Shown piece after piece: positions 4,966 to 36,801 of a DNA stretch of 40,186 nt. Positions within the stretch are counted from its first letter, which is position 1. Each line of letters begins with the position of its first letter. Position numbers and translations under genes: made by a program. This DNA comes from a virus (lineage: Duplodnaviria; Heunggongvirae; Uroviricota; Caudoviricetes), in the IMG/VR virus record IMGVR_UViG_2728369554_000009, positions 1 through 40,186 of that record. The stretch is one strand, 5' to 3'. The notes under the pieces were generated by a model. The model was not told where the DNA came from, did no database searches, and was given only the letters and a program-made list of their open reading frames with translations.

Positions 4966-5042
4966 TTACCGTTGAGGTAATGATTATGCGTATCTGGTTT
5001 GATGTCAATAGATATGAGTTAAAAAAATTACCCATAAGGTAA
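4966..5042. promoter_or_regulatory. Leftward early control region with two TTACC-N5-GGTAA operators (4966-4980 and 5028-5042)
   Basis: Perfect palindromes ttaccgttgaggtaa and ttacccataaggtaa lie just upstream of the leftward operon. Confidence 0.6.
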
Positions 5043-5099: not shown

Positions 5100-5684
5100 T
5101 TATTGTTTGTTTTTTTCGTTCTGGCTGATGACAAATTCAATGTAACTTTCGATCTTTGCCTTCTCTGTTTCGGGTAACAATGCGTAGCGCGAGCGGTCAT
5201 AGTTGATAGTCGCAGGGTCGTGCGGGTGAATCAGTAATTCATAGCCGTGACGCCCGAATGCGGATGCAACATTCTCCAGGGTGGAAATGGAAACGCTGAC
5301 CTCATTGTTTAACAGGCGGCTGATTGTCACCTGGGCGACGCCGGATGCGCGGTGAAGTTTTCCCTGTGTTGAAAGGTAGCGGCTTTCGCTCATCCAGCGT
5401 TCCAGGTTGTGAGCCGCCAGCTGACCAATGTCGCTTGGGCCGACAGGCTGAAAACCTTCCTGAGAAAGCGAGCGATCGATATCAAGCCAGTTACGGGGTT
5501 TATTGGCGGCAGCTTCAATTTTTCGCGCAACCTGGTCGCCGATAACCTTCTTGCCAAGAGCCCAGCGGTTTACCAGATTTGCCTGAGTTCCAAGTTTTTC
5601 TGCCATCCGCGTCTGAACACCATTGAATTCACGGTCGATCAAGTCGTTGAGATTTTGCCTGCGGACGTCCTGGATACTTTTCAT
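5100..5684 (-). CDS. Prophage repressor with two HTH domains and no S24/LexA-like cleavage domain
   Basis: 194 aa. There are two XRE-type HTH segments (TRMAEKLGTQANLVNRWALGKK and LHRASGVAQVTISRLLNN). It is divergent from the Cro-like gene across a three-operator region. No Ala-Gly/Ser-Lys autocleavage module is visible. Confidence 0.75.
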   Translation of the reverse strand: MKSIQDVRRQNLNDLIDREFNGVQTRMAEKLGTQANLVNRWALGKKVIGDQVARKIEAAANKPRNWLDIDRSLSQEGFQPVGPSDIGQLAAHNLERWMSESRYLSTQGKLHRASGVAQVTISRLLNNEVSVSISTLENVASAFGRHGYELLIHPHDPATINYDRSRYALLPETEKAKIESYIEFVISQNEKNKQ

Positions 5685-17801: not shown

Positions 17802-17852
17802 CGCCTGTTATTAACCTGTGGGCCGCAACAGGCCCACTAATGGAGAAAGAAG

Positions 17853-29462: not shown

Positions 29463-29861
29463 TTAAGTGTATACCTCCTGCTGTTCAGTCGTGATTTTAC
29501 CCGGCAACACCTTTTTAGCTTTGCGCGGGTTAACCACATGGCCTTTAGTCCAGTACTCGTAGAGCACATCATCACACTCTTCCTGATACTGGATTACCTT
29601 ATCGCGGATTTCAGGGCGGACTTTGTTTGGACTGATGCTGTTCAACCAAGCTGCCAATTTTCGTAAAGCCATACAAATCATGGCTTGCACCCCTCCGGCA
29701 GAAGGTATGGTGATTTCCACCATACCCTTCGAGAAGCGTTGAGAAATCTTCTTATGTTGAGATTTCCAGTCTAGACCCATTCCCTCAACGATAGGTTTCA
29801 TTGGGGTGTACGGTTCGCCGTTGTGATTGACAACATAAAGTTCTACGCCGTGGAATGGCAC
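29463..29861 (-). CDS. P22 Ant N-terminal-domain-like protein (132 aa, GTG start)
   Basis: PFHGVELYVVNHNGEPYTPMKPIVEGMGLDWKSQHKKI matches the P22_AR N-terminal pattern as I recall it. The long Ant C-terminal part is missing. Confidence 0.6.
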   Translation of the reverse strand: MPFHGVELYVVNHNGEPYTPMKPIVEGMGLDWKSQHKKISQRFSKGMVEITIPSAGGVQAMICMALRKLAAWLNSISPNKVRPEIRDKVIQYQEECDDVLYEYWTKGHVVNPRKAKKVLPGKITTEQQEVYT

Positions 29862-30008: not shown

Positions 30009-30265
30009 TTACCTTTTCGGTAAATTTACATCGCACTCCTCTTGTGCCATAGTAATCGGGCACTGGCAAAATCCAGTGCCGGGATTGGTCTCCCGGATTA
30101 CTACAGAGGCACATATGCCGCATAAGCGGTTTTTTTATGTGTAAAGCGCACCTATTCTATGGTGGGCTGTGTGGGGGCACCGAAAGGTGCGCCGGGTTCC
30201 TTTGTAGCCGGTAAGACCAACTCTGCACAGTTCACCACCATCTGATTGGTCTCAGCGGTGGTGAT
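30009..30265 (+). repeat. Outer inverted repeat, arm A (operator plus structured leader)
   Basis: It is the reverse complement of 32938-33197. The first 95 nt are identical. After that there is patchy identity with paired substitutions. Confidence 0.85.
30024..30136 (+). ncRNA. Terminated leader sRNA, copy A, possibly C4-like
   Basis: An outer stem tagtaatc/gattacta (30050-30057 / 30096-30103) encloses hairpins ggcactgg-caaaat-ccagtgcc and ggga-ttggtc-tccc. Hairpin ccgc-ataa-gcgg plus T7 follows. The loop ttggtct is complementary to agaccaa in the downstream leader. Confidence 0.5.
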
Positions 30266-30290
30266 TAACCTAACTACAAAGGTGATCGCC

Positions 30291-30983
30291 ATGAATACCA
30301 AACCTTCCATCTTTTCCTTTGAGTCATCCTGCCAGATCCGTATGTTCATGATTGACGGAGAACCTTGGTTTGTCACCAAAGATGTGTGCAATGCTTTGAA
30401 TATTGATGTTACACAAGCGAGAAAACTTGATAAAAAAGGCTGGAACAAAAAGGGGCTGTATTCAATACAGACCCCTGGTGGAATACAAGAACTATCCATC
30501 GTTTCAGAATCAGGTCTCTACATCCTTATTCTGCGTTGCAAAGAGGCAATGACTGAGGGAACGAGAGCATTCAGATTTCTTGAATGGGTTACAGGTGAGG
30601 TTCTTCCTCAGATCCGCCGCACCGGAAGTTACATTAAAAACTCGCTCCCGCAGGAAGAACGCATAAAGATGGTTGCCGACCAGGTAGCCAACGCCACGGC
30701 GTCAGCAGTAATGCAGGCGATGAAGATAGAGAACAAAACCTACAGTGCCCCGCTGAAGCCCGGCTACCGCAGCCTGATTCATTCTCCGTCTGGTGTTCTC
30801 GGCCTGACGGAGAACTCACTGCTGATGAATCTGCTGAACCAGTTACAGGAAGACGGGCACGATGTATCGGGCGCGGCGGCGGAGCTGACCACCATGTTCT
30901 GCTACATCGTCGGTGTGAGCAAATGCCTGCGTGATATCCAGACGCACGCGGAATACATCAACGACAAGGCAGGGTTCTTCTGA
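30291..30983 (+). CDS. Antirepressor 1: Bro-N domain plus the shared C-terminal module
   Basis: The start MNTKPSIFSFE lies behind AGGTGA. QIRMFMIDGEPWFVTKDVCNALNI is Bro-N-like. The last ~81 aa are nearly identical to those of the 32255-32911 product. Confidence 0.75.
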   Translation: MNTKPSIFSFESSCQIRMFMIDGEPWFVTKDVCNALNIDVTQARKLDKKGWNKKGLYSIQTPGGIQELSIVSESGLYILILRCKEAMTEGTRAFRFLEWVTGEVLPQIRRTGSYIKNSLPQEERIKMVADQVANATASAVMQAMKIENKTYSAPLKPGYRSLIHSPSGVLGLTENSLLMNLLNQLQEDGHDVSGAAAELTTMFCYIVGVSKCLRDIQTHAEYINDKAGFF

Positions 30984-31299: not shown

Positions 31300-31812
31300 C
31301 TATGCAGGCTTTTTGGATTTGTACGAATAATCCCACGGATAAACATTTCTACTAAGTGGAGCTGTATTCGTTCGTTCATGAAATAATTTTGTGAAATTCA
31401 ATACGGAATCCATCCAAACTTTTGCGTTAGCTTTGGTGTGTGCGGGCGGGTCCCAATAAGCTAGTAAGGCTGCATCTCTTATTTCATTGACTGCATATAT
31501 GAGATATGCGTTACTGGTTGGTTTTGGCCTGTAATTTCCTTGTTCATCAATCAATCCATATGACCACTCATCCCAACACTGTTCAGTACATGAGTATGAA
31601 TATGATGCATATTCACCAATATTGACATGAACCTTTCTGAGATGGAAGCCTAATACTTCCTCTGGTCTTTCAAAAAGAGTATCTTTTCCCAGATCAGGAT
31701 GATGACCATGACGCCAGTGTTGTTTAAAAGCATCTTTTAGCGAAATCAGAAAGTCATCAGTTTTAAACTCACCAGTAGGTATAACCTTCCCGCTATACTC
31801 ACTCAAAAACAT
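31300..31812 (-). CDS. YafO-like toxin-family protein (170 aa)
   Basis: LKDAFKQHWRHGHHPDLGKDTLFERPEEVLGFHLRKVHVNIGE and NAYLIYAVNEIRDAALLAYWDPPAH parallel YafO segments (..PDIFGRDALYDD..VAHIHLAN.. and ..AHLVYCQG..AWLLIAIL.PEPH), which I am recalling from memory. AT-rich DNA. Confidence 0.5.
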   Translation of the reverse strand: MFLSEYSGKVIPTGEFKTDDFLISLKDAFKQHWRHGHHPDLGKDTLFERPEEVLGFHLRKVHVNIGEYASYSYSCTEQCWDEWSYGLIDEQGNYRPKPTSNAYLIYAVNEIRDAALLAYWDPPAHTKANAKVWMDSVLNFTKLFHERTNTAPLSRNVYPWDYSYKSKKPA

Positions 31813-32125
31813 CGAATTCCTCTTCCTTCATATGCGTTTCTAATGAGTTAAGCTGGCGGAAAGATATCTCTTTTGATTCTGCAGATGAGAGCTTTTTTAT
31901 CCGCTTTATATTCTTTGTGATAGGAATAGACATTGTATGCACATCAGCGGATGCTCTTGGCTTTGTGCTGATAAAAATATGGCGCAATGCCGCATTTTCA
32001 CTATTGAACGAGCCAATAGCTGATTTACGTGCTACAACCTTACCAGTAAAAATACGACTCTTGCTACGCTTTGCATGAGTTCCGCTTCTTACCGGACCTC
32101 TCATCACGAATCCAAGTTTTGTCAT
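31799..32125 (-). CDS. Upstream partner of the YafO-like gene (108 aa, basic N-terminus, acidic tail EEEFDVFE). Putative antitoxin of an unrecognised family.
   Basis: It overlaps the downstream gene by 14 nt. A promoter with a perfect operator lies 43 bp upstream. Confidence 0.5.
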   Translation of the reverse strand: MTKLGFVMRGPVRSGTHAKRSKSRIFTGKVVARKSAIGSFNSENAALRHIFISTKPRASADVHTMSIPITKNIKRIKKLSSAESKEISFRQLNSLETHMKEEEFDVFE

Positions 32126-32167
32126 CTTTAATCTCCGGTAAGTTACAGGTATAAAATAAAAACAGGT

Positions 32168-32182
32168 TTACCTTTAAGGTAA
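32168..32182. promoter_or_regulatory. Perfect operator upstream of the two-gene operon
   Basis: ttacctttaaggtaa. Confidence 0.55.
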
Positions 32183-32229: not shown

Positions 32230-32497
32230 AGGCACATCCCTGTGCCACCGCCCGTCAGAAGAACCCTGCCTTGTCGTTGATGTACTCCGCGTGGGTCTGG
32301 ATATCACGCAGGCATTTGCTCACACCGACGATGTAGCAGAACATGGTGGTCAGCTCCGCCGCCGCGCCCGATACGTCGTGCCCGTCGTCCTGTAACTGGT
32401 TCAGCAGATTCATCAGCAGTGAGTTCTCCGTCAGGCCGAGAACACCAGACGGCGAATGAATCAGGCTGCGGTAGCCGGGCTTCAGTGGGGCGCTGTA
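32230..32497 (-). repeat. Inner inverted repeat, arm B
   Basis: Reverse complement of 30741-31008. Confidence 0.85.
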
Positions 32498-32911
32498 TTC
32501 TTTTTTGTCTTCCAGCTTGATCGCCTCCATTATGGCGGGCATGAAGCCTGACAAGACCTTCTCCACTTTTGTTTCTTGTTGTCTTAAACGTTTCTCGCAT
32601 TCAATGAAGTAGCGTCGCACCTGGCGACCTTTTTCGTTACGCTCGACCATCGCCAGCTCTTTGGCTGTATCAAGGGTGAGGTGGTACTCTTTGCGGTTGT
32701 GGCCGCCTCTACCAGATGTTTGCTTTCCCAAATTGGAAAGCAAAATATAGTCTTGATTTTCAATGAATTCGTATTCTGATATGCGATTTGTAATCCATGC
32801 TGCAAACACCTTTTTAACACCTAAAAAAGCGTGCAGATCGCGGGCATTACAAAGTAGGGCTGTTTCGTTAGATATAGTGCCGTTGAATACGGGGATGAGT
32901 TGAGCGTTCAT
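32255..32911 (-). CDS. Antirepressor 2: AntA-type N-terminal domain plus the shared C-terminal module
   Basis: [37 protein letters not shown]...[29 protein letters not shown] is the AntA/AntB pattern. Confidence 0.75.
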
Positions 32912-33069: not shown

Positions 33070-33182
33070 AAAAAAACCACGTCTGGCGTGGTATGCGCCA
33101 CTTAGTAATCCGGGAGACCAATCCCGGCACTGGATTTTGCCAGTGCCCGATTACTATGGCACAAGAGGAGTGCGATGTAAAT
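33070..33182 (-). ncRNA. Terminated leader sRNA, copy B
   Basis: Its body (33103-33156) is identical to copy A. The terminator stem differs (ccacg-ccaga-cgtgg plus T7), so the structure is kept while the sequence changed. Confidence 0.5.
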
Positions 33183-33197
33183 TTACCGAAAAGGTAA
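33183..33197. promoter_or_regulatory. Perfect operator at the head of leader B. Its mirror at the head of leader A is 30009-30023.
   Basis: ttaccgaaaaggtaa. Confidence 0.55.
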
Positions 33198-33228
33198 ATA
33201 TAAGCACTCCACTTGGTAATTGCAAACC

Positions 33229-33486
33229 TTATCTGGTTTGTTTTCGTAATTGTTCGGCACAATAGTCGAGATGTGTTTGCAGATCCTGCATAGACATCTG
33301 TGAGCTGGTGACGTAGTTAATCAGTGCAGTCAGTTCGGCAAGTGGGCCATCGACATTAAATCCATCCTTATCGAGATCCCGGAGTAATTTCATCAAGTGC
33401 GATCCCTCCACCAGTGACCTGACGCCTCCCGGCGTGTGAATCCTTTCGGTAAATCCGTCTTCCAGTGGATAGTGATACTGCTGCAT
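33229..33486 (-). CDS. Mini-antirepressor (85 aa) made only of a diverged copy of the shared C-terminal module
   Basis: The start MQQYHYPLEDG lies behind GGAGAAG. HTPGGVRSLVEGSHLMKLLRDLDKDGFNVDGPLAELTALINYV aligns with [44 protein letters not shown]. The longer 126-aa ORF would include the LexA box. Confidence 0.6.
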   Translation of the reverse strand: MQQYHYPLEDGFTERIHTPGGVRSLVEGSHLMKLLRDLDKDGFNVDGPLAELTALINYVTSSQMSMQDLQTHLDYCAEQLRKQTR

Positions 33487-33507
33487 CTTATCTTCTCCAT
33501 GCAATAA

Positions 33508-33523
33508 CTGTATATTTATACAG
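33508..33523. promoter_or_regulatory. LexA (SOS) box CTGTATATTTATACAG
   Basis: A perfect CTGT-N8-ACAG with an AT-only spacer, 22 bp upstream of the mini-antirepressor ATG. Confidence 0.8.
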
Positions 33524-33562
33524 TAGCAAATAATTTGTTTGCTATCCAGCACGTTTTGCAAA

Positions 33563-33577
33563 TTACCTGAAAGGTAA
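33563..33577. promoter_or_regulatory. Perfect operator in the divergent region between the mini-antirepressor and the tailspike gene
   Basis: ttacctgaaaggtaa, with the same spacer as the site at 13804. Confidence 0.55.
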
Positions 33578-33681
33578 TATCTATTCGTATTTACAGCCTT
33601 TCTATCCATATGTGGTTTTCCAGGTAATAGAATAACCAGATATGCGGCGCAACGGGTGCTGCGACTATCTGGAGATTTAAC

Positions 33682-36600
33682 ATGACGGTCTCAACCGAAG
33701 TTGACCACAACGAATACACCGGTAACGGCGTTACGACATCGTTTCCGTATACTTTTCGAATTTTCAGAAAATCAGACCTGGTTGTTCAGGTGTCTGACCT
33801 GAACGGAAACGTAACAGAATTGGTTCTGGATACCGGTTATACGGTAACTGGGGCGGGCACTTATAGTGGCGGTTCTGTGGTTCTTCCGTCTCCGCTTGCT
33901 ACTGGATGGCGAATTACGATAGATCGTGTGCTTGATGTAGTGCAGGAGACAGACCTTCGCAATCAGGGAAAATTTTTCCCCGAAGTGCATGAAGATGCCT
34001 TTGACTACCTGACGATGCTGATCCAGCAATGTTTTGGGTGGTTCAGACGTGCATTGATGAAACCATCTTTGCTTGCAAAATATTACGATGCAAAGCAAAA
34101 CAAAATTTCTAACCTTGCAGATCCATCATTTGAGCAGGACGCTGTAAATAATCGCTCAATGCGTAATTATGTCGATGCTGCAATCGCCGGGGTTGTTGGT
34201 GGTTTTGGTTGGTTTATTCAGTATGGTTCTGGGGCTGTGTACCGAACGTTCCAGGATAAAATGCGTGATGCTATTAGCCCCAAAGATTTTGGAGCTGTTG
34301 GTGATGGTATAAATGACGATTCCACTGCAATAAGCGCGTGCCTTGAAGCCTCATCTCCAGGTTATAAAATTGACGGATTAGGGCTTACTTTTAAAGTATC
34401 AACTCTTCCGGATGTCAGTCGATTTAAAAATGCTCGTTTTTTATTTGAGAGAATACCGGGCCAGCCTCTTTTTTATGCTTCTGAAGATTTTATCCAGGGA
34501 GAGTTATTTAAAATTACAGATACACCGTGGTACAACGCCTGGACGCAGGATAAAACGTTTGTATATGACAATGTCATCTATGCGCCTTTTATGGCTGGAG
34601 ACCGCCATGGTGTAAATAACCTCCATGTTGCATGGGTTCGCTCAGGAGATGACGGGAAGACCTGGACAACGCCGGAATGGCTTACAGATTTACATGAAAA
34701 CTATCCCACAGTTAACTATCACTGCATGAGTATGGGGGTTGTCAGAAATCGCCTTTTTGCTGTAATTGAGACGCGGACCGTGAGCGGAAATAAACTGCAG
34801 GTTGCAGAGTTGTGGGATCGCCCAATGAGTCGCAGCCTTCGCGTTTATGGTGGTATAACGAAAGCAGCAAATCAGCAAGTCGCTTATATTCGCATTACTG
34901 ATCACGGATTATTTGCTGGTGATTTTGTCAACTTCTCAAACTCTGGTGTTACAGGTGTTACCGGGAATATGACGGTGACTACTGTTATTGATAAAAATAC
35001 TTTTACAGTTACGACGCAAAATACCCAGGATGTGGATCAGAATAACGAGGGTAGATACTGGAGTTTTGGTACATCATTTCACTCGTCACCATGGAGAAAA
35101 ACCAGTCTTGGAACTATTCCTTCTTTTGTTGACGGAAGCACTCCTGTTACTGAGATTCACAGTTTTGCGACGATTAGCGATAACAGTTTTGCTGTTGGCT
35201 ACCATAATGGTGATATTGGTCCACGCGAGCTTGGGATACTCTATTTCTCTGATGCTTTCGGTTCTCCTGGTAGCTTTATTCGCAGACGCATACCTGCAGA
35301 ATATGAGGCGAATGCATCTGAGCCATGTGTAAAATATTATGATGGCATTCTGTATCTGACGACCAGGGGGACATTAAGTACTCAACCCGGTAGTTCATTG
35401 CACAGAAGCTCTGATTTAGGTACATCATGGAATTCTCTTCGCTTCCCAAATAATGTTCATCACTCAAACCTTCCTTTTGCCAAAGTTGGCGATGAGCTGA
35501 TTATTTTTGGCAGTGAGCGCGCATTTGGTGAGTGGGAAGGAGGAGAACCTGATAACCGTTATGCAGGAAATTATCCAAGAACATTTATGACCAGAGTTAA
35601 CGTCAATGAGTGGAGTCTGGATAATGTAGAGTGGGTTAATGTTACTGATCAGATTTATCAGGGCGGAATAGTTAACTCTGCGGTTGGTGTTGGTTCAGTT
35701 TGTATCAAAGACAACTGGCTGTACTACATTTTCGGTGGGGAAGACTTTCTAAACCCATGGAGCATAGGGGATAACAACAGAAAATATCCTTATGTTCACG
35801 ATGGTCACCCGGCTGATTTATATTGTTTCAGGGTGAAAATCAAACAGGAAGAATTTGTTTCAAGGGATTTTGTCTACGGAGCCACTCCTAACAGAACGCT
35901 TCCTACTTTTATGTCGACGTCAGGCGTGAGGACGGTTCCTGTACCCGTTGATTTCACAGATGATGTTGCCGTCCAGTCACTGACTGTCCATGCAGGTACA
36001 TCAGGACAAGTTCGCGCGGAAGTCAAACTTGAGGGTAATTACGCCATTATTGCGAAGAAAGTACCGTCTGATGATGTTACCGCTCAGAGATTAATCGTTA
36101 GCGGCGGTGAAACAACGTCTTCAGCAGATGGTGCAATGATAACGTTGCATGGTTCCGGAAGCAGTACTCCACGTCGCGCGGTATATAACGCACTCGAACA
36201 TCTTTTTGAGAACGGAGATGTTAAACCTTATCTTGATAATGTAAATGCTCTTGGTGGTCCGGGAAACAGGTTCTCGACAGTTTATCTTGGCTCCAATCCT
36301 GTGGTTACCAGTGACGGAACATTAAAGACAGAGCCGGTCTCTCCTGACGAAGCATTGCTGGATGCCTGGGGTGACGTCAGGTATATCGCTTATAAATGGC
36401 TGAACGCTGTCGCTATAAAGGGGGAAGAAGGGGCGAGGATACATCATGGTGTAATCGCGCAGCAACTTCGTGATGTTCTTATTTCTCACGGACTCATGGA
36501 AGAAGAAAGCACAACATGCCGCTATGCCTTTCTTTGCTATGACGATTATCCCGCAGTATATGATGACGTCATTACTGGCCAAAGGGAAATGCCGCTGACT

Positions 36601-36801
36601 GATAATGAAGGGAGCATCATTGTTGATGAGGATGATAATCCAGTGATGGTAATGGAAGACATCATTGAGCGCGTTGAAATAACGCCAGCAGGATCTAGAT
36701 GGGGGGTCAGACCTGATCTCTTATTCTATATCGAGGCAGCATGGCAGCGCAGAGAAATGGATAAGATAAAAGAGCGGATTCAGTCTCTGGAAGAACGTTA
36801 A
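33682..36801 (+). CDS. Tailspike: conserved N-terminal particle-binding domain, Asp-box (sialidase-like) central domain, and a C-terminal intramolecular chaperone (peptidase S74-type) domain
   Basis: 1039 aa. Asp-boxes are SGDDGKTW and SSDLGTSW. The GAVGDGINDDSTAI motif is present. The C-terminal VVTSDGTLKTE...HHGVIAQQL matches the S-D-x-x-x-K autocleavage region, with Ser877 at 36310-36312. Confidence 0.85.
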   Translation: MTVSTEVDHNEYTGNGVTTSFPYTFRIFRKSDLVVQVSDLNGNVTELVLDTGYTVTGAGTYSGGSVVLPSPLATGWRITIDRVLDVVQETDLRNQGKFFPEVHEDAFDYLTMLIQQCFGWFRRALMKPSLLAKYYDAKQNKISNLADPSFEQDAVNNRSMRNYVDAAIAGVVGGFGWFIQYGSGAVYRTFQDKMRDAISPKDFGAVGDGINDDSTAISACLEASSPGYKIDGLGLTFKVSTLPDVSRFKNARFLFERIPGQPLFYASEDFIQGELFKITDTPWYNAWTQDKTFVYDNVIYAPFMAGDRHGVNNLHVAWVRSGDDGKTWTTPEWLTDLHENYPTVNYHCMSMGVVRNRLFAVIETRTVSGNKLQVAELWDRPMSRSLRVYGGITKAANQQVAYIRITDHGLFAGDFVNFSNSGVTGVTGNMTVTTVIDKNTFTVTTQNTQDVDQNNEGRYWSFGTSFHSSPWRKTSLGTIPSFVDGSTPVTEIHSFATISDNSFAVGYHNGDIGPRELGILYFSDAFGSPGSFIRRRIPAEYEANASEPCVKYYDGILYLTTRGTLSTQPGSSLHRSSDLGTSWNSLRFPNNVHHSNLPFAKVGDELIIFGSERAFGEWEGGEPDNRYAGNYPRTFMTRVNVNEWSLDNVEWVNVTDQIYQGGIVNSAVGVGSVCIKDNWLYYIFGGEDFLNPWSIGDNNRKYPYVHDGHPADLYCFRVKIKQEEFVSRDFVYGATPNRTLPTFMSTSGVRTVPVPVDFTDDVAVQSLTVHAGTSGQVRAEVKLEGNYAIIAKKVPSDDVTAQRLIVSGGETTSSADGAMITLHGSGSSTPRRAVYNALEHLFENGDVKPYLDNVNALGGPGNRFSTVYLGSNPVVTSDGTLKTEPVSPDEALLDAWGDVRYIAYKWLNAVAIKGEEGARIHHGVIAQQLRDVLISHGLMEEESTTCRYAFLCYDDYPAVYDDVITGQREMPLTDNEGSIIVDEDDNPVMVMEDIIERVEITPAGSRWGVRPDLLFYIEAAWQRREMDKIKERIQSLEER

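Follow-up and report, generated by a model that had tools for sequence, protein, structure and literature searches.

How might DNA damage be sensed by a prophage whose repressor matches no autocleavage domain? The question is raised by a short locus (33,229 to 33,577) in a viral DNA of 40,186 nucleotides (nt), positions 1 to 40,186 of IMG/VR record IMGVR_UViG_2728369554_000009. This whole stretch, referred to here as the window, is by sequence comparison that of an epsilon15/phiV10-like temperate phage of Escherichia coli (Uetakevirus; epsilon15-like podoviruses). The locus holds a gene of 85 codons, ant, directly preceded by a palindrome resembling a LexA (SOS) box. We consider it likely, with a probability of roughly 0.85, that ant of this E. 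coli Uetakevirus is orthologous to the antirepressor gene of Salmonella phage SPC32H, that the palindrome is its LexA operator, and that the mechanism described for SPC32H would hold here by orthology.

The LexA box and the ant gene

The LexA consensus is TACTG(TA)5CAGTA. The palindrome upstream of ant, AACTGTATATTTATACAGTA, contains the 16-mer CTGTATATTTATACAG (33508-33523), and a first-pass annotation, made by a model from the DNA letters and a list of their open reading frames (ORFs), had described this core as a perfect CTGT-N8-ACAG box, as the only SOS box in the window, and as lying 22 bp from a well-placed ATG with a GGAGAAG Shine-Dalgarno sequence. Its coordinates and sequence were right, the ATG and the Shine-Dalgarno sequence are present, with 21 nt by our count between the 16-mer and the ATG (19 nt from the 20-mer), and the uniqueness of the site was borne out by a matrix scan of the window. 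The scan used an approximate, symmetrised position weight matrix built from 26 E. coli LexA sites; by this measure AACTGTATATTTATACAGTA scores 27.2 bits of a possible 29.3, exceeding all of the training sites (12.9-25.8 bits), and it is the sole site above 11 bits, the second-best site, at 10.8 bits, falling under the weakest training site. When the window was shuffled 200 times, 27.2 bits was never attained (mean of the shuffle maxima 12.2, peak 23.2). One further match to CTGT-N8-ACAG is found at 17816; it has a G+C-rich centre and is not among the top 12 matrix hits.

The position of the box is conserved among related phages. We aligned about 210 nt upstream of ant from nine Uetakeviruses of Escherichia, Salmonella, Enterobacter, and Klebsiella, and found that the half-site parts TG-T and ATACAGT are invariant, as is the ant ATG, while the centre of the box drifts; half-sites that are kept around a drifting N8 centre are the pattern expected of a LexA site. 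The set was then extended to 16 loci, adding Pluralibacter and one metagenome contig, with four divergent orthologs (64-71% identity) from assemblies and the metagenome. The best matrix hit within each locus of 4-11 kb was always 17-19 nt upstream of the ant ATG (16/16 loci; 17.9-28.3 bits). In six loci (L005, L008, and L013-L016, which are two Klebsiella phages, two Pluralibacter contigs, the metagenome contig, and a sequencing-run assembly) ATGT replaces one CTGT, and the box, ~18-19 nt from the ant ATG on its upstream side, reads ATATGTATATATATACAGTA (17.9 bits). LexA may bind this form more weakly, or the form may be adapted to the LexA of the host.

The identity of the gene itself rests on several searches. 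By tblastn, Ant is 88% identical over 83 of its 85 residues to the product annotated 'ant: anti-repressor protein' in SPC32H/SPC32N (KC911856), and among phage genomes the 85-aa protein was found in 35 records, mostly annotated Uetakeviruses. The sole match among PDB sequences (phmmer, E = 4e-47, residues 2-84) is chain E, 'Anti-repressor protein', of entry 5D50, whose title as given by Foldseek is 'Crystal structure of Rep-Ant complex from Salmonella-temperate phage'. PHROG 450, a family of 88 positions listed as 'unknown function', also matches Ant (E = 9e-48). Pfam and NCBIfam contain no family for the 85-aa protein, and in particular no P22_AR_N or other N-terminal antirepressor domain was matched; the only Pfam line, DUF724, was dismissed as noise (17.6 bits against a cut-off of 38.4). 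The gene lies between the block of tail genes and the divergently transcribed tailspike gene, and it occupies the same place in phiv142-3, phiV10, SPC32H, epsilon15, and others. No Rfam hit was found in 33487-33681, so that mini-Ant, as we call the 85-aa protein where it must be told apart from larger relatives, is without the isrK/C4 leader that the larger genes possess.

Of 5426 complete E. coli genomes, 529 carry the unit of ant and LexA box (at least 90% identity), and among the records listed ant is always a 'hypothetical protein' or unannotated. This constitutes an annotation gap, as an ortholog of this 'hypothetical' gene has both a crystal structure and a defined role, and recognising the unit predicts that these prophages are induced by the SOS response via an antirepressor and not via repressor cleavage. 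Positions of this unit and of the other features discussed below are collected in Table 1.

Table 1. Location of the features discussed, in window coordinates
Feature	Position	Strand	Basis or remark
LexA (SOS) box AACTGTATATTTATACAGTA	33506..33525	palindrome, none	matrix score, position conserved
ant, 85 aa + stop	33486..33229	minus	ortholog of SPC32H Ant
Shine-Dalgarno sequence GGAGAAG of ant	33498-33492	minus	GGAG invariant in nine-phage alignment; 8 nt before ATG
TTACCTGAAAGGTAA palindrome, probable Rep operator	33563..33577	none	divergent intergenic region of ant and tailspike gene
rep, 194-aa prophage repressor, presumed target of Ant	5100..5684	minus	homology to 5D50 chain A
AntA-type antirepressor, 218 aa; Ant-like C-terminal module (residues ~137-212)	32255..32911	minus	Pfam AntA, E = 4e-26
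Bro-N-type antirepressor, 245 aa from TTG; Ant-like C-terminal module	30246..30983	plus	Pfam Bro-N, E = 2e-13
Leader of AntA-type gene: isrK; C4 antisense-type RNA	33146-33070; 33045-32961	minus	Rfam, 67.7 and 61.2 bits
Rep-operator-like palindrome abutting -35 of isrK promoter	33183..33197	minus-strand copy	
Leader of Bro-N-type gene: isrK; C4	30060-30136; 30155-30242	plus	Rfam, 74.7 and 78.6 bits
Operator-like palindrome before promoter-like site of Bro-N leader	30009-30023		
Integrase	window start		
Endosialidase tailspike	33682-36801		divergent from ant

Rep, its probable operators and the expected switch

The repressor encoded by rep matches chain A ('Repressor') of 5D50 over its full length (phmmer, E = 1.4e-41) and is 99% identical to the repressors of phiV10 and ZX5. 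In Pfam it matches only HTH_3 and other HTH families, with no Peptidase_S24 autocleavage domain. The palindrome TTACC-N5-GGTAA occurs 15 times in the window with at most one mismatch, 12 of these exactly, against 0.8 expected; the alternative spacing TTACC-N7-GGTAA was discarded, as it gave one match, which is the chance level. These sites span 4966-33577, cluster around rep and cro (4966, 5028, 5740, 5788, and 6125), and also precede many other transcription units; pairs 62 bp apart, at 4966/5028 and 8094/8156, flank good sigma-70-like promoters. Judged by sequence and placement, these palindromes are most likely the operators at which the Rep of this immunity type acts. The copy upstream of ant, TTACCTGAAAGGTAA, has an equivalent in the GenBank record of epsilon15 that is labelled 'protein_bind: repressor', and it sits 50-52 nt upstream of the LexA 20-mer, a spacing that is constant in all related loci with an exact operator match.

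A second motif was seen in the neighbourhood of some of these palindromes. On the plus strand, ATATGTGGTT (or TTATGTGGTT) stands ~45-57 nt downstream of three of them (8141, 13861, and 33608), and the block around 33608 is invariant in the nine-phage alignment. The enrichment of ATATGTGGTT across the window is weak (7 matches against 2.8 expected), and the motif could belong to some promoter or activator element that these places have in common.

With these parts, the following course of events is likely. In the lysogen, host LexA bound to AACTGTATATTTATACAGTA would keep ant off, and Rep would shut the lytic promoters at its TTACC-N5-GGTAA operators along the genome. Upon DNA damage, RecA would be activated, LexA would cleave itself, and ant would be transcribed; Ant would then bind Rep and free the operators, and the prophage would be induced. 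SPC32H Ant has reportedly been studied by Kim and Ryu in 2013 (J Virol 87:11775) and by Kim et al. in 2016 (PNAS 113:E2480), and the latter study is reported to have found that Ant binds the C-terminal domains of Rep with no competition for the DNA-binding surface. One review credits Kim and Ryu (2013) with a sequence in which SOS cleavage of LexA allows the antirepressor to be made and the repressor is inactivated by protein-protein contact (PMC7380047), and another describes how the Ant of SPC32H, as a tetramer, binds two dimers of Rep and thereby takes apart the tetramer in which Rep binds DNA (PMC9638917). SPC32H and the window are alike in that both have an Ant of the same size, upstream of and divergent from the tailspike gene, with a LexA box 19 nt before the ATG in SPC32H also, and in that the partner Rep is homologous and has no matched autocleavage domain. 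They differ in that the phage of the window has E. coli as its host, a K1-type endosialidase tailspike, and a Rep that is only 41.8% identical to that of SPC32H; moreover, ant of SPC32H stands alone, whereas the window adds two large antirepressors that carry an Ant-like module, as well as a truncated P22_AR_N gene.

Other phages follow the same logic. The Gifsy-1/3 antirepressors are reported to have been described by Lemire et al. in 2011. Together with 186 Tum and N15 AntC, they are small antirepressors that are repressed by LexA and that inactivate an uncleaved repressor through protein-protein contact (PMC7380047); however, the phage type and repressor architecture differ from those of the window, and no common Pfam or NCBIfam family was detected, the sequences themselves not having been compared directly. 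The Ant of the P22 immI region, which is controlled by Mnt and Arc, has a P22_AR_N-type head, whereas by Pfam the 85-aa protein is without one and the P22_AR_N gene of the window is a separate, truncated one. A LexA-controlled mini-antirepressor is already established for this genus, to which the window adds an E. coli member that annotation has missed.

The shared module and the large antirepressors

The first-pass annotation had aligned the 85-aa product with a C-terminus common to the two large antirepressors and had proposed that this module is the functional, probably repressor-binding, unit. The alignment was reproduced: the 218-aa and 245-aa proteins align gap-free with Ant through their last ~75 residues, at 42% identity (E = 6e-16 and 7e-16), and PHROG 450 matches both large C-termini at about 1e-36 (for the 218-aa protein, residues 135-216, E = 6e-36). 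The last ~85 residues of the two large proteins are near-identical to each other, and at the DNA level the identity is 95% across 257 nt. The proposed function gains support from the orthology of Ant to SPC32H Ant (88%; 5D50), from the Rep homolog in the window, and from the existence of the module as a stand-alone family, and it may be taken as the probable one. In an AlphaFold2 (AF2) model of the module of the 218-aa protein (mean pLDDT, the predicted local distance difference test, 76), the best PDB folds are the Ant chains of 5D50 (TM score 0.67-0.81, root-mean-square deviation 1.5-2.2 Å); the input alignment consisted mostly of mini-Ant orthologs, and the model is therefore weak as independent evidence, adding little beyond sequence homology. 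The Bro-N-type gene likely starts at the ATG at 30291, giving 230 aa, and for its homolog RefSeq lists a gene of 693 nt.

When 1.84 billion representatives were searched exhaustively with a profile, 62 clusters only were returned, all of them Ant-like modules, either as proteins of their own (~80-95 aa) or fused to the C-terminal side of a head (130-319 aa in all); a word-indexed protein search returned orthologs of 85-127 aa only and no fusions. The heads of the fusions, judged from their sequences, are AntA, Bro-N, Rha-like, and ORF6N-like. Sequence similarity thus identifies the module as a small enterobacterial-phage family that occurs by itself as well as at the C-terminal end of classical modular antirepressors. 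The stand-alone module recurs beside fusions whose heads are AntA, Bro-N, Rha, and ORF6N and which lie behind Rep-operator-like palindromes, a compact natural system in which one could ask whether the large heads give a minimal repressor-binding unit anything more than regulation or targeting.

How common is the combination found in the window? Run on the 16 loci and on the window, a hidden Markov model of the module detects a single mini-Ant every time, together with zero to two large module-bearing genes. Large genes are present in phiv142-3, Tyrion, Kp4865-1, the Pluralibacter contigs, and E. coli A_5 (two copies), in one metagenome-derived contig in the ORF6N form, and in ZX5; they are absent from about half of the loci (SPC32H, epsilon15, BUCT554, BUCT711, L011, L012, L015, and L016). 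Coverage of the full three-gene region reaches at least 80% in just two of the 5426 complete E. coli genomes. The annotation had presented three paralogs of one module under three controls as the new feature of this locus, but this was overstated, as the LexA box and mini-ant are conserved across the genus and large antirepressors recur nearby. In the literature searched, we found no discussion of the shared module or of its co-occurrence with RNA-gated, operator-linked large antirepressors; this co-occurrence is a modest comparative observation and no new kind of system.

A related case is that of E. coli phage ZX5 (vB_EcoP_ZX5), whose mini-Ant is 100% and whose Rep is 99% identical to those of the window. 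Its ORF4, named 'anti-repressor', is a Bro-N protein with a C-terminal 107 residues identical to those of the 245-aa protein, and its overexpression cut the prophage titre from 10^9 to 10^6 and reduced lysogeny (PMC9782041). That study makes no mention of LexA, of SPC32H, of the small gene, which is annotated as hypothetical, or of the shared module (PMC9782041).

Two further observations concern antirepressor genes that are truncated or split. A 132-aa ORF on the minus strand (29463-29861) has only a P22_AR_N N-terminal domain (E = 5e-44), and E. coli A_5 has a homolog that carries the label of a pseudogene without the C-terminus; by these signs it is a fourth, decayed antirepressor gene of the locus. 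In phiV10 (L002, 4284-4972), the module of the Bro-N 'anti-immunity' protein p23 is split by a frameshift, such that p23 ends at module position 34 and a small ORF after it (the p22 region) has module positions 38-80.

The two large genes are controlled differently from ant and alike between themselves. All four matches to isrK and C4 are full length and above the Rfam gathering scores, and the order in both cases is operator-like palindrome, promoter-like site, isrK, terminator-like hairpin, C4, and ORF; the two leaders repeat each other in inverted orientation (98% identity over 100 nt). The AntA-type leader has a promoter-like TTTACA-17-CATAGT, the end of which lies 7 nt upstream of the isrK 5' end, and its terminator-like hairpin is at 33092-33076. 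The matrix scan of the window found SOS input at mini-ant only. The three paralogs are consequently not under three different controls, as had been claimed, but under two schemes, the palindrome and isrK/C4 leader being shared by both large genes.

Leaders of this kind are known from Gifsy-1 (isrK-orf45-anrP) and from the immI region of P1/P7 (c4-icd-ant), and the likeness is limited to the two large paralogs, mini-ant having no leader. In Gifsy-1, the isrK leader, driven by an isrK promoter, terminates partially and the antirepressor-like anrP is untranslated until short IsrK acts in trans. Unlike Gifsy-1 and P1, the window has a Uetakevirus Rep-operator-like palindrome at its leader promoters, and the small ORF of its leader does not overlap the start of the antirepressor gene, whereas orf45 of Gifsy-1 does.

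The large antirepressors would bring the same Rep-binding module on AntA and Bro-N heads, behind an operator-like palindrome and an isrK/C4 leader, and most likely they would act after Rep begins to fall, as a reinforcement, or after infection, or in trans; that they should serve as primary SOS sensors is unlikely. We tentatively entertain, at clearly less than even odds, a two-stage circuit made of the three module genes, in which LexA-gated mini-Ant would remove the first Rep and thereby derepress the operator-controlled, isrK/C4-gated large antirepressors, which might co-assemble with mini-Ant in mixed tetramers. Since a scan of the stretch from the ant stop codon to isrK revealed no terminator-like site, read-through from the LexA-controlled promoter into the isrK leader would couple the stages further. 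If true, such a circuit would be a positive-feedback commitment switch, which possibly knocks out related repressors of co-resident prophages.

A potential RNA structure was also observed in this stretch. In a read-through transcript of ant (minus strand, 33160-33215), GGAGUGC (33210-33204) can pair with a downstream GCACUCC, a pairing that encloses the operator and the -35 of the isrK promoter and has a fold energy of z = -5.0 relative to shuffles; its left arm is missing at the other isrK copy.

Competing explanations and the wider phage

Several considerations weigh against the reading of ant as an SPC32H-type, LexA-controlled antirepressor. LexA binding, SOS-dependent expression of ant, and binding of Ant to Rep would all be carried over to this phage from SPC32H, and Rep is 41.8% identical to its SPC32H counterpart as against 88% for Ant, so that transfer of the Ant-Rep interaction is plausible and not guaranteed. 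Upstream of ant, a consensus promoter scan gave no sigma-70 match that reached 9/12. In addition, the Rep-operator-like palindrome 40 nt upstream of the LexA box abuts a TTGCAA, with a geometry as at the isrK promoters, and if this palindrome controls ant, Rep would also damp its own antirepressor. Individual promoter candidates were considered and set aside: TTGCTA-17-TATTGC would begin the transcript at or after the Shine-Dalgarno sequence, a -10 within the box (TATAAA) is without a credible -35, and TTGCAA beside the operator, taken as the -35 of ant, has a poor -10, so that no candidate can be selected from sequence alone. Between the operator and the LexA box, a block GCTGGATAG (33541-33550) is nearly invariant in the nine phages and shows no fit to a sigma-70 hexamer at a sensible spacing.

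One alternative, which is compatible with the SPC32H-type mechanism and which we regard as doubtful while giving it some weight, is that the ant promoter is repressed by LexA and Rep together, the latter through the palindrome at 33563-33577 and the -35-like TTGCAA abutting it. Cleavage of LexA alone would then yield a trickle of Ant, with full expression once Rep falls, in a self-reinforcing loop. The arrangement of operator, 1 nt, and -35-like hexamer is shared with the two isrK promoters, whose predicted start is the isrK 5' end, and in this frame the LexA box, held at its constant distance from the operator, would lie at about +1 to +20 with the Shine-Dalgarno sequence within the transcript. 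However, the operator and TTGCAA are both palindromic and might just as well belong to the divergent promoter of the tailspike gene, the -10 that ant would have in this frame is poor and lacks conservation, TTGCAA is missing from the Klebsiella phages, and the start of induction requires that Ant be made while Rep is still bound. A further possibility, which we judge unlikely, gives the part of working inducer in the E. coli lineage to the large AntA and Bro-N antirepressors and leaves mini-Ant as a modulator, either in mixed oligomers with the large proteins via the shared module, which are conceivable because SPC32H Ant is reported as a tetramer, or through action on heteroimmune Salmonella-type Reps. 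Such a division would fit the divergence of Rep to 42% from SPC32H Rep while mini-Ant stayed at 88%, as well as the measured anti-lysogeny activity of the ZX5 Bro-N protein with its identical module; yet it is mini-ant and its LexA box that are kept in all loci examined, whereas the large genes are absent from about half of them and frameshifted in phiV10, mini-ant alone has an SOS input, and genes behind Rep-operator-like sites cannot fire first. That the real product should instead be a 126-aa ORF (33609..33229), with the palindrome arising by chance or as a non-LexA element, is scarcely credible. Several automated gene calls do give products of 126-127 aa (P0003, P0031-35), but the extension would be translated through the LexA box and the operator, the crystallised Ant (5D50) has 86 aa, the ATG and GGAG of ant are invariant, and the box is both significant and conserved in position; we reject this ORF, as its extension is not open in related phages, of which epsilon15, Tyrion, BUCT554, and others have a stop codon 6 codons before the ATG.

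As to the phage itself, nucleotide comparison showed that the region around ant shares 99% identity with Escherichia phage phiv142-3, and 91-94% with phiV10, ZX5, TL-2011b, and further Uetakeviruses. The tailspike has the full endosialidase set of domains (End_N_terminal, beta-propeller, beta-barrel, and End_tail_spike) plus a Peptidase_S74 chaperone, and because of this set the phage likely targets the polysialic-acid (K1) capsule, which sets it apart from phiV10 and epsilon15; its host was probably, on the same grounds, a K1-capsulated E. coli strain.

Between the two large antirepressor genes lies a further minus-strand unit (31300-32182) resembling a toxin-antitoxin pair, in which a 108-aa ORF (32125-31799) overlaps a 170-aa ORF (31812-31300). 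The latter has a weak Pfam match to YafO, and its RefSeq homolog is named a YafO family toxin. An exact operator-like palindrome (32168-32182) directly precedes the two genes, which could possibly represent a toxin-antitoxin moron under Rep control.

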